Positions 46,264 through 47,079 are shown, counted from the stretch's first letter. The stretch: DNA of 64,000 bases from Escherichia coli (GCF_003334255.1 NZ_QOWU01000006.1), one strand, 5' to 3'. Numbers and translations: made by a program. Notes: generated by a model not told the origin, from the letters alone.

Positions 46264-47079
46264 TTATTGGTCAAATGGCGCTTCGTGTTTAAGCACTTTA
46301 TCGATCACATCCAGTACGCCTTCACGGTTATTGGAGCCTGCCCGGTATTTTGCCGCTGCGACGACCGCGCTGCCGGCATTTTCCATTGCAAAACTAAAGC
46401 CTGCCTGACGCAGCATCTCAATATCGTTACCGCCATCGCCAAAGACCACCACTTCGCTGTCGTCTATTCCCCATAATTTCTGCAGTTGGCGAAGGCCATT
46501 GGCTTTATGTACGCCGGGGATAATCAGATCGATGCTGCCGTTGCCGGTGTGGACTGGCACCATAATATCGCCGATGGCCTCATGTAATGCTTTTTGTACT
46601 TGTGGAATCAGTTCATCGGAAAGATTCAGGCCAAACTTAAAGAAAATATCTTCTAAGTTGTCAAAGTTATCGACGTATTCCAGACGGTGATAATACATTT
46701 CCGCCACCGTTTTCATGGCATCGTCATATTTTTTGAGCGTATAGGCGCTATTTTTTCCGCAGGCAATAATTTCCACTTCCGGGCGCGTCAGCAAATGTTC
46801 CACGACAGTAGTAAAGGCATCCTTCGACAGCTCGCCATTAAAAACATCTTTGCCTTCACTCACTACCCAGCCGCCGTTTTCAGCCACAAAGGCAATTTCA
46901 TTCGCAATTTCAGGGAAGAAAGAGATCAACTGATAATATTGATTCCCGCTGGCGACCACAAAGCGAATGCCTTGTGCTTTCATTTGCTGATACTGAGCCA
47001 TAAACCGCTCACGGTTATAGGTTTTTTGATCGCTTAAGAAAGTACCATCCATGTCTACCGCAATTAATTTAATGCTCAT
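46264..47079 (-). CDS. ybjI: HAD-superfamily (Cof-type) phosphatase YbjI
   Basis: 271-aa product from ATG 47079; HAD motifs DMDGTF and GDGGND; paralog of YbiV. Start overlaps the ybjJ stop (TGATG). Confidence 0.9.
   Translation of the reverse strand: MSIKLIAVDMDGTFLSDQKTYNRERFMAQYQQMKAQGIRFVVASGNQYYQLISFFPEIANEIAFVAENGGWVVSEGKDVFNGELSKDAFTTVVEHLLTRPEVEIIACGKNSAYTLKKYDDAMKTVAEMYYHRLEYVDNFDNLEDIFFKFGLNLSDELIPQVQKALHEAIGDIMVPVHTGNGSIDLIIPGVHKANGLRQLQKLWGIDDSEVVVFGDGGNDIEMLRQAGFSFAMENAGSAVVAAAKYRAGSNNREGVLDVIDKVLKHEAPFDQ

Follow-up and report, generated by a model that had tools for sequence, protein, structure and literature searches.

The Cof-like phosphatases of Escherichia coli form a group of seven enzymes, YbiV and YbjI among them, whose specificities overlap substantially (PMC3040653). 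Much about this pair is already documented, namely both genes, the family to which they belong, the structures of YbiV, in-vitro substrates that differ between the two enzymes, and the RcdA operator that governs one of them. The statements on substrates are secondary citations of the primary screen (Kuznetsova 2006). According to these, YbjI, like YigB, prefers FMN and also dephosphorylates the riboflavin intermediate ARPP in vitro, whereas YbiV has served as a sugar-phosphate phosphatase, with mannose-6-phosphate and psicose-6-phosphate as substrates. It is also reported that deletion of ybjI alone did not result in riboflavin auxotrophy, and that overexpression of ybjI in a riboflavin producer lowered the titre by about 90%. 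Dephosphorylation of ARPP and FMN, as reported for YbjI, is also found in the YcsE-type enzymes of Bacillus, which are themselves Cof-type. Another Cof-type phosphatase, SMU.1108c of Streptococcus mutans (PDB 3L7Y), matched YbiV and YbjI alike, with scores of 172-176 bits. The E. coli proteins Cof, YidA, YigL and YbhA share with YbiV and YbjI the Hydrolase_3/TIGR00099 architecture and the catalytic motifs, but they are only about 22% identical to the pair, and a long branch, recovered in 100% of bootstraps, sets them apart from the YbiV/YbjI subfamily.

The DNA considered here (the window) is a stretch of 64,000 nucleotides of the E. coli chromosome that carries both genes. As predicted by the first-pass annotation, ybiV and ybjI are close paralogues lying about 26 kb apart, 25.4 kb from end to start and 26.2 kb from start to start. 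The ybjI reading frame (46264-47079, minus strand) encodes a 271-residue Cof-type HAD-IIB phosphatase (FMN/ARPP phosphatase), as identified from the ORF, the RefSeq annotation, Pfam Hydrolase_3 and TIGR00099, and RefSeq records with the annotation ybjI match its DNA at 100% identity. The ybiV (supH) reading frame (20058-20873, minus strand) also encodes 271 residues, a Cof-type HAD-IIB sugar phosphatase according to the ORF, the annotation, the PDB entries 1rlm and 2hf2, and TIGR00099. The regions 44000-49000 and 17000-26000, in which the two genes lie, were found in essentially all of the 5,426 genomes searched, and complete E. coli genomes matched them with identities of up to 100%. An IS1 element of 768 bp that interrupts deoR in the best-matching strain, G1/2 (L001:4579-5346), was rejected as a feature of the window, in which positions 43346-43354 are uninterrupted.

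Alignment of the two proteins by BLASTP gave 138 identical residues of 270 (51%), 67% positives and no gaps (E 5e-101), a similarity much greater than chance would give. When the four HAD motifs were left out together with wide margins on either side, 107 of 232 positions (46%) were still identical, above the 30% below which the first-pass annotation had proposed to abandon the relationship. Within E. coli, the nearest paralogue of either protein is the other one, at 51% identity; identity to Cof, YidA, YigL and YbhA is about 22%. The long common blocks that had been read from the sequence were all recovered, including DMDGTFL, KTYN, FMAQYQ and an identical run of 18 residues at positions 40-57, as was the motif pair GDSGND (YbiV) and GDGGND (YbjI). 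The only slip was in a motif quoted as G[IK][RK], which actually reads G-I-[KR].

Both proteins are members of the Cof-type HAD-IIB family, with TIGR00099 scores of 221.3 bits for YbiV and 193.4 bits for YbjI against a cutoff of 137, and the Pfam Hydrolase_3 model (PF08282) matches YbjI over its full length (1-255 of 255, E 7.9e-55). None of the NCBIfam equivalog models for YidA, YigL, Cof, YbhA or the YcsE-related enzymes reached its cutoff for either protein. The second-best NCBIfam match of both was the YcsE-related riboflavin-metabolism phosphatase NF045966, for which YbiV (108.9 bits) ranked above YbjI (98.1 bits). These scores are far below the cutoff of 220 bits, which places both proteins outside the YcsE-related equivalog, and the YidA-type sugar-phosphatase model NF007806 gave 87.4 and 79 bits for the pair with a cutoff of 273.

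The catalytic set is complete in both YbiV and YbjI: motif I, of the form DxDG[TS], is D9-M-D11-G-T13, motif II contributes S44, motif III K192, and motif IV G-D215-x-x-N218-D219. All of the 82 subfamily sequences collected have D9, D11, S44, K192, D215, N218 and D219, and the only exception at the eight catalytic positions is a T13S substitution in two of them. The aspartyl-phosphate mechanism is established for the HAD superfamily. Given the full set of motifs in both proteins, YbiV and YbjI are predicted to hydrolyse phosphomonoesters through such an intermediate, and they would thus act as Mg-dependent phosphomonoesterases in which the aspartyl-phosphate is formed on D9. The YbiV encoded in the window is the crystallised protein, nearly identical to the entries deposited as 'sugar phosphatase SupH' (PDB 1RLM, 1RLO, 1RLT and 2HF2; E 1e-177, a handful of substitutions). 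YbjI has no structure of its own; its best solved relative is YbiV (E 2.6e-87). The two proteins differ at 49% of their residues, and most of these differences fall in the cap. The ungapped 51% alignment and the correspondence of YbiV with PDB 1rlm suggest that both proteins carry a C2B alpha/beta cap inserted between motifs II and III.

The surroundings of ybjI are those described for the RcdA regulon (PMC3535384). Upstream lies ybjJ (47079-48287, minus strand), identified from its ORF and annotation as encoding an MFS transporter of 402 residues, and the TGA stop codon of ybjJ shares one base with the ATG of ybjI (TGATG), with a GGAG sequence 9 nt upstream of the start; the junction reads GGAGAATAGTTGATGAGC. 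Divergent from ybjJ-ybjI is rcdA (ybjK; 48371-48907, plus strand; ORF and annotation), the gene of a TetR-family regulator. The 83-bp spacer between rcdA and ybjJ contains the RcdA operator, the palindrome TTGTGTACAttTGTACACAA at 48331-48350. This palindrome, TTGTGTACATTTGTACACAA, is perfect, is located upstream of ybjJ-ybjI and fits the RcdA box TTGTnnACA. The same spacer was isolated by genomic SELEX and footprinted with RcdA using DNase I, and the ybjJI operon was derepressed in an rcdA mutant as judged by Northern blotting and a lacZ fusion (Shimada et al. 2012, PMC3535384). The window has the same palindrome in the same spacer, with no difference from the published arrangement. Hence the first-pass annotation was correct in joining ybjI to an MFS gene under an RcdA operator, but too cautious in calling the operator putative, because the published footprint and derepression make it an experimentally established one (PMC3535384). 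The operon and its repression by RcdA are published findings. The 1-nt overlap and its conservation suggest that translation of ybjI, the second gene of the operon, is coupled to that of the transporter gene ybjJ.

Downstream of ybjI by 85 bp, and on the same strand, is ybjH (45894-46178), a reading frame of 94 residues known from the ORF and annotation, which had no match in NCBIfam. Among the best 80 of more than 514 matches in the survey of species described below, tblastn found ybjH only in Escherichia and in some Citrobacter loci, and in Salmonella, Enterobacter, Klebsiella and others of these loci mdfA directly follows ybjI.

The ybiV gene adjoins glycyl-radical enzyme genes, as the first-pass annotation had noted, and is separated from them by a gap of 145 bp. 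Immediately upstream is ybiW (21019-23451, minus strand; ORF and annotation), the gene of a glycyl-radical enzyme of 810 residues reported to cleave 1,5-anhydroglucitol-6-phosphate (PMC12441222). Ma et al. (2024), according to PMC12441222, gave 1-deoxy-fructose-6-phosphate as the product of YbiW from this substrate. Next come ybiY (23457-24356, minus strand), annotated as the glycyl-radical enzyme activase, and, divergent from it, fsa (fsaA; 24487-25149, plus strand), annotated as fructose-6-phosphate aldolase. Downstream of ybiV is ybiU (18641-19906, minus strand), which encodes a DUF1479 protein according to its ORF and annotation and is syntenic in most loci of the YbiV clade. Directly past the ybiV stop codon, at 20030-20050 on the minus strand, is a terminator-like hairpin of eight pairs, six of them G-C, followed by a T-rich tail (TTTCCCTTCT). 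YciT sites at ybiV, ybiY and fsaA were detected by ChIP-exo, and differential expression was seen in a yciT mutant (PMC8464067). A scan of the 145-bp ybiW-ybiV spacer with consensus patterns detected neither a promoter nor a terminator at the thresholds used. We propose that ybiV is expressed from its own spacer, through a putative promoter beside the anhydroglucitol glycyl-radical genes, and that it is probably under YciT control.

Two other features of this region are worth recording. Just past the ybiW stop codon, in the 145-bp spacer at 20987-21011 on the minus strand, is a perfect G+C hairpin of 11 bp that lacks a T tract (-24 kcal/mol, z = -4.2), and this could be an RNA-stabilising or a partial terminator element. 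An element of about 145 bp between ybiT and ybiU (approximately 18446-18588) has an inverted copy, 82.5% identical, at 60613-60761, and is probably a member of a dispersed intergenic repeat family; the query 17000-26000 had a median of 16 matching places per E. coli genome.

We surveyed one genome per GTDB species with two peptide patterns taken from the alignment of the two proteins, retained the best 80 of more than 514 matches, and identified the neighbouring genes in these 80 loci by tblastn with the neighbouring proteins of the window. The counts that follow are those of a sample biased by the two patterns and by the choice of the best 80 of more than 514. A YbjI-type protein, 64-97% identical to YbjI, was encoded in 32 of the 80 loci, in Escherichia, Citrobacter, Salmonella, Enterobacter, Klebsiella, Raoultella and Kluyvera, and further in Cedecea, Siccibacter, Pluralibacter, Lelliottia, Leclercia, Superficieibacter and Pseudocitrobacter. 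In every one of these 32 loci ybjI directly follows ybjJ, usually with mdfA downstream; the order rcdA-ybjJ-ybjI was present in 30, and the remaining two have ybjJ-ybjI with rcdA undetected. Within the same best 80, the tight ybjJ/ybjI junction with its GGAG is kept in the 32 loci of other species, and an identical RcdA palindrome was present in Citrobacter, Enterobacter and Pluralibacter. A YbiV-type protein, 74-96% identical to YbiV, was encoded in 26 of the 80 loci, 24 of them with the order ybiY-ybiW-ybiV, and the gap between ybiW and ybiV was about 125-175 bp in all such loci. The claim that the two genes reside in different operon contexts is thus borne out well beyond E. coli, with each context conserved in its own clade (30/32 and 24/26 among the best 80 of more than 514 matches).

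Exceptions to the ybiV arrangement were seen in two genera. In the two Superficieibacter loci (L059:4009-8601 and L074:5032-9989) tblastn found no fsaA, ybiY, ybiW or ybiU. Here the ybiV orthologue is 77-79% identical and has a ybiT-like ORF downstream, and it is preceded by two putative genes whose N-terminal sequences resemble those of moeA and moeB. That ybiV persists at these loci although the glycyl-radical genes are missing from them indicates that its link with ybiW is not obligatory. In Kluyvera genomosp. 3 (L053:2926-9093) the matches to FsaA, YbiY, YbiW and YbiU are truncated or fragmented and ybiV is full length; the glycyl-radical cluster may be decaying in this species while ybiV is kept. 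Outside the two clades, Yersinia nurmii, Rouxiella aceris, Rahnella inusitata and an Enterobacterales MAG share a conserved trio of ROK, MFS and phosphatase genes (L066:987-5220, L068:4606-7810, L070:4612-7813 and L082:4632-7813). The phosphatase of the trio belongs to a separate lineage of the YbiV/YbjI subfamily and is 46-48% identical to YbjI. The MFS protein, whose gene is preceded by the ROK-family gene, is 28% identical to YbjJ over 359 residues (E 6e-23).

Taking the protein comparison and the neighbourhoods together, we are largely confident that a distinct Cof-type subfamily has two members in E. coli, ybiV and ybjI, and that these split before the radiation of the Enterobacteriaceae, each having been fixed in its own neighbourhood. 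The ybjI gene would have been fixed as the second gene of the RcdA-repressed ybjJ-ybjI pair, and ybiV, separately spaced, beside ybiY-ybiW, fsaA and ybiU.

How and when the two copies arose can be approached from the DNA and from a tree of the subfamily. The identical run of 18 residues and the other identical blocks might suggest a recent duplication or ongoing gene conversion, but the DNA points firmly the other way. The genes are 57% identical overall and 40% identical at third codon positions, the same codon is used at only 70 of the 138 identical residues, no 60-nt window exceeds 75% identity, and exact matches extend over 11 nt at most. These values show that synonymous sites are saturated and that there is no gene-conversion tract. 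The identical blocks coincide with the HAD core near motif II and are conserved throughout the subfamily, which argues that purifying selection has preserved them. We therefore rejected recent duplication or conversion, whose probability we regard as negligible, on the strength of the third-position identity and the short exact runs. It is well supported that the two-copy state predates the enterobacterial radiation and that the split is no younger than the Enterobacteriaceae. A different question is whether the ancestral event was a duplication. In a neighbour-joining tree (270 columns, 300 bootstraps, rooted with E. coli Cof, YidA, YigL and YbhA, outgroups whose 22% identity makes long-branch effects possible) the YbiV/YbjI subfamily was monophyletic in 100% of bootstraps. 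Within it, support was 91% for the YbjI clade, 100% for the YbiV clade and 95% for the YbiV clade with Mangrovibacter. The Enterobacterales contain at least two further lineages, one with Mixta, Rouxiella and a MAG, the other with Yersinia nurmii, Rouxiella, Rahnella and the same MAG. A clade containing both E. coli types and no Firmicutes appeared in 30% of bootstraps, the YbiV clade with Firmicutes to the exclusion of the YbjI clade in 31%, and the YbjI clade with Firmicutes to the exclusion of the YbiV clade in 12%. Mean identities among the best 80 of more than 514 matches were 49% between the YbjI and YbiV clades, 50% between the YbjI clade and Firmicutes, and 45% between the YbiV clade and Firmicutes. 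Since homologues from Firmicutes are equally close and the bootstrap support is 30%, a duplication within the lineage is not distinguishable from horizontal acquisition, and the two-copy state may go back either to a duplication in an ancestor of the enterobacteria or to the acquisition of one copy. Of the earlier proposal of an old duplication, the age stands, given the saturated synonymous sites and the spread of both clades across genera, whereas the duplication within the lineage does not follow. One could suppose that ybiV and ybjI are pseudo-paralogues: instead of arising by duplication in the Escherichia lineage, one copy would have come in by horizontal transfer, perhaps out of a Firmicute or a different enterobacterial lineage in which a diverged version was already present. 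The Firmicutes indeed fall between the YbjI and YbiV clades in the observed tree, homologues from Bacillus glycinifermentans, Trichococcus, Enterococcus, Listeria and Breznakia are 50-52% identical to YbjI, as is YbiV (best 80 of more than 514 matches), and the Yersiniaceae hold two further lineages of the subfamily. Moreover, the G+C contents of ybiV and ybjI (0.467 and 0.461; GC3 0.52 and 0.50) are below those of their neighbours (0.52-0.56; GC3 0.57-0.61). Yet no deep arrangement exceeded 31% of bootstraps, and the low G+C is common to both copies and so does not mark out a single foreign one. Both clades also follow the genera of the Enterobacteriaceae with stable synteny, so that any transfer would be as old as the family and its compositional signals should have been ameliorated. 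On balance we think that acquisition is rather unlikely. Both phosphatase genes are also below the G+C content of the whole window (0.509). Possible reasons are the amino-acid composition of the proteins, weak expression and an ancient foreign source.

The same caution applies to the proposal that one copy was neofunctionalised. The cap domain is the substrate-selecting part of HAD proteins with C2B caps, and identity between YbiV and YbjI is 40% in the cap (residues 83-185) and 58% in the core (residues 1-82 and 186-271). At 21 positions the residue is at least 90% conserved inside each clade yet different between the clades. In 14 of the 15 species with both genes, YbiV has diverged less from its E. 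coli orthologue than YbjI has from its own, by a mean of 6 points of identity (sign test p = 0.001 over the 15 species, from the best 80 of more than 514 matches). YbjI is thus the faster-evolving of the two. Such rate asymmetry is often seen where one copy shifts function. The concentration of divergence in the cap fits the published preferences, as given in the secondary citations, of YbjI for FMN and ARPP versus YbiV for sugar phosphates. These differing in-vitro preferences are compatible with functional divergence, but the gain of a new function by one copy does not follow from them, because promiscuity is common to Cof-type enzymes and subfunctionalisation would account for the data just as well. 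According to this alternative, a promiscuous ancestor used both flavin or ARPP and sugar phosphates, and the copies, partially redundant, differ mainly in regulation and context. The overlapping specificities of the E. coli Cof-like phosphatases (PMC3040653) speak for it, as do the different regulators at the two loci, RcdA versus YciT. The YcsE-related model, moreover, is the second-best match for both proteins and scores YbiV (109 bits) above YbjI (98 bits), and YigB is reported to duplicate the activity on ARPP and FMN, loss of ybjI alone not causing auxotrophy. The promiscuity of the family and the YcsE-model scores make subfunctionalisation or redundancy as defensible as neofunctionalisation. 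Against it are the low identity of the substrate-selecting cap, the most diverged part of the protein, the 21 clade-specific positions and the faster change of YbjI, seen in all but one of the 15 species compared (best 80 of more than 514 matches). We regard subfunctionalisation as a serious contender with a little less than an even chance of being correct.

Returning to the favoured reading, that of two anciently separated members of one subfamily, each fixed in its own neighbourhood, the pair has little importance beyond bookkeeping. The small additions made here are the contrasting conserved synteny, the rate asymmetry, the retention of ybiV in the absence of glycyl-radical genes and a second, independent pairing of a YbjJ-like MFS gene with a phosphatase gene of the subfamily, in Yersiniaceae. 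The weak support of the deep nodes (at most 31%) cautions against calling ybiV and ybjI a simple duplication. One possible hypothesis, which is speculative and which in its combined form we consider improbable, is that a YbjJ-family MFS gene and a phosphatase gene of this subfamily constitute a recurrent two-gene unit, and that YbiV is the dedicated safety-valve phosphatase of the YbiW/FsaA pathway. If the first part were true, rcdA-ybjJ-ybjI of the Enterobacteriaceae and ROK-MFS-phosphatase of Yersinia, Rouxiella and Rahnella would represent the unit in separate lineages, which would suggest a dephosphorylate-and-export (or import-linked) function, with ybjI keeping the older arrangement. If the second part were true, YbiV would act on AG6P or 1-deoxy-fructose-6-phosphate of the 1,5-anhydroglucitol-6-phosphate pathway rather than as a generic sugar phosphatase. 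The neighbourhoods would thus offer guesses at physiological substrates: for YbiV, intermediates of the anhydroglucitol glycyl-radical pathway, and for YbjI, a compound handled by YbjJ.
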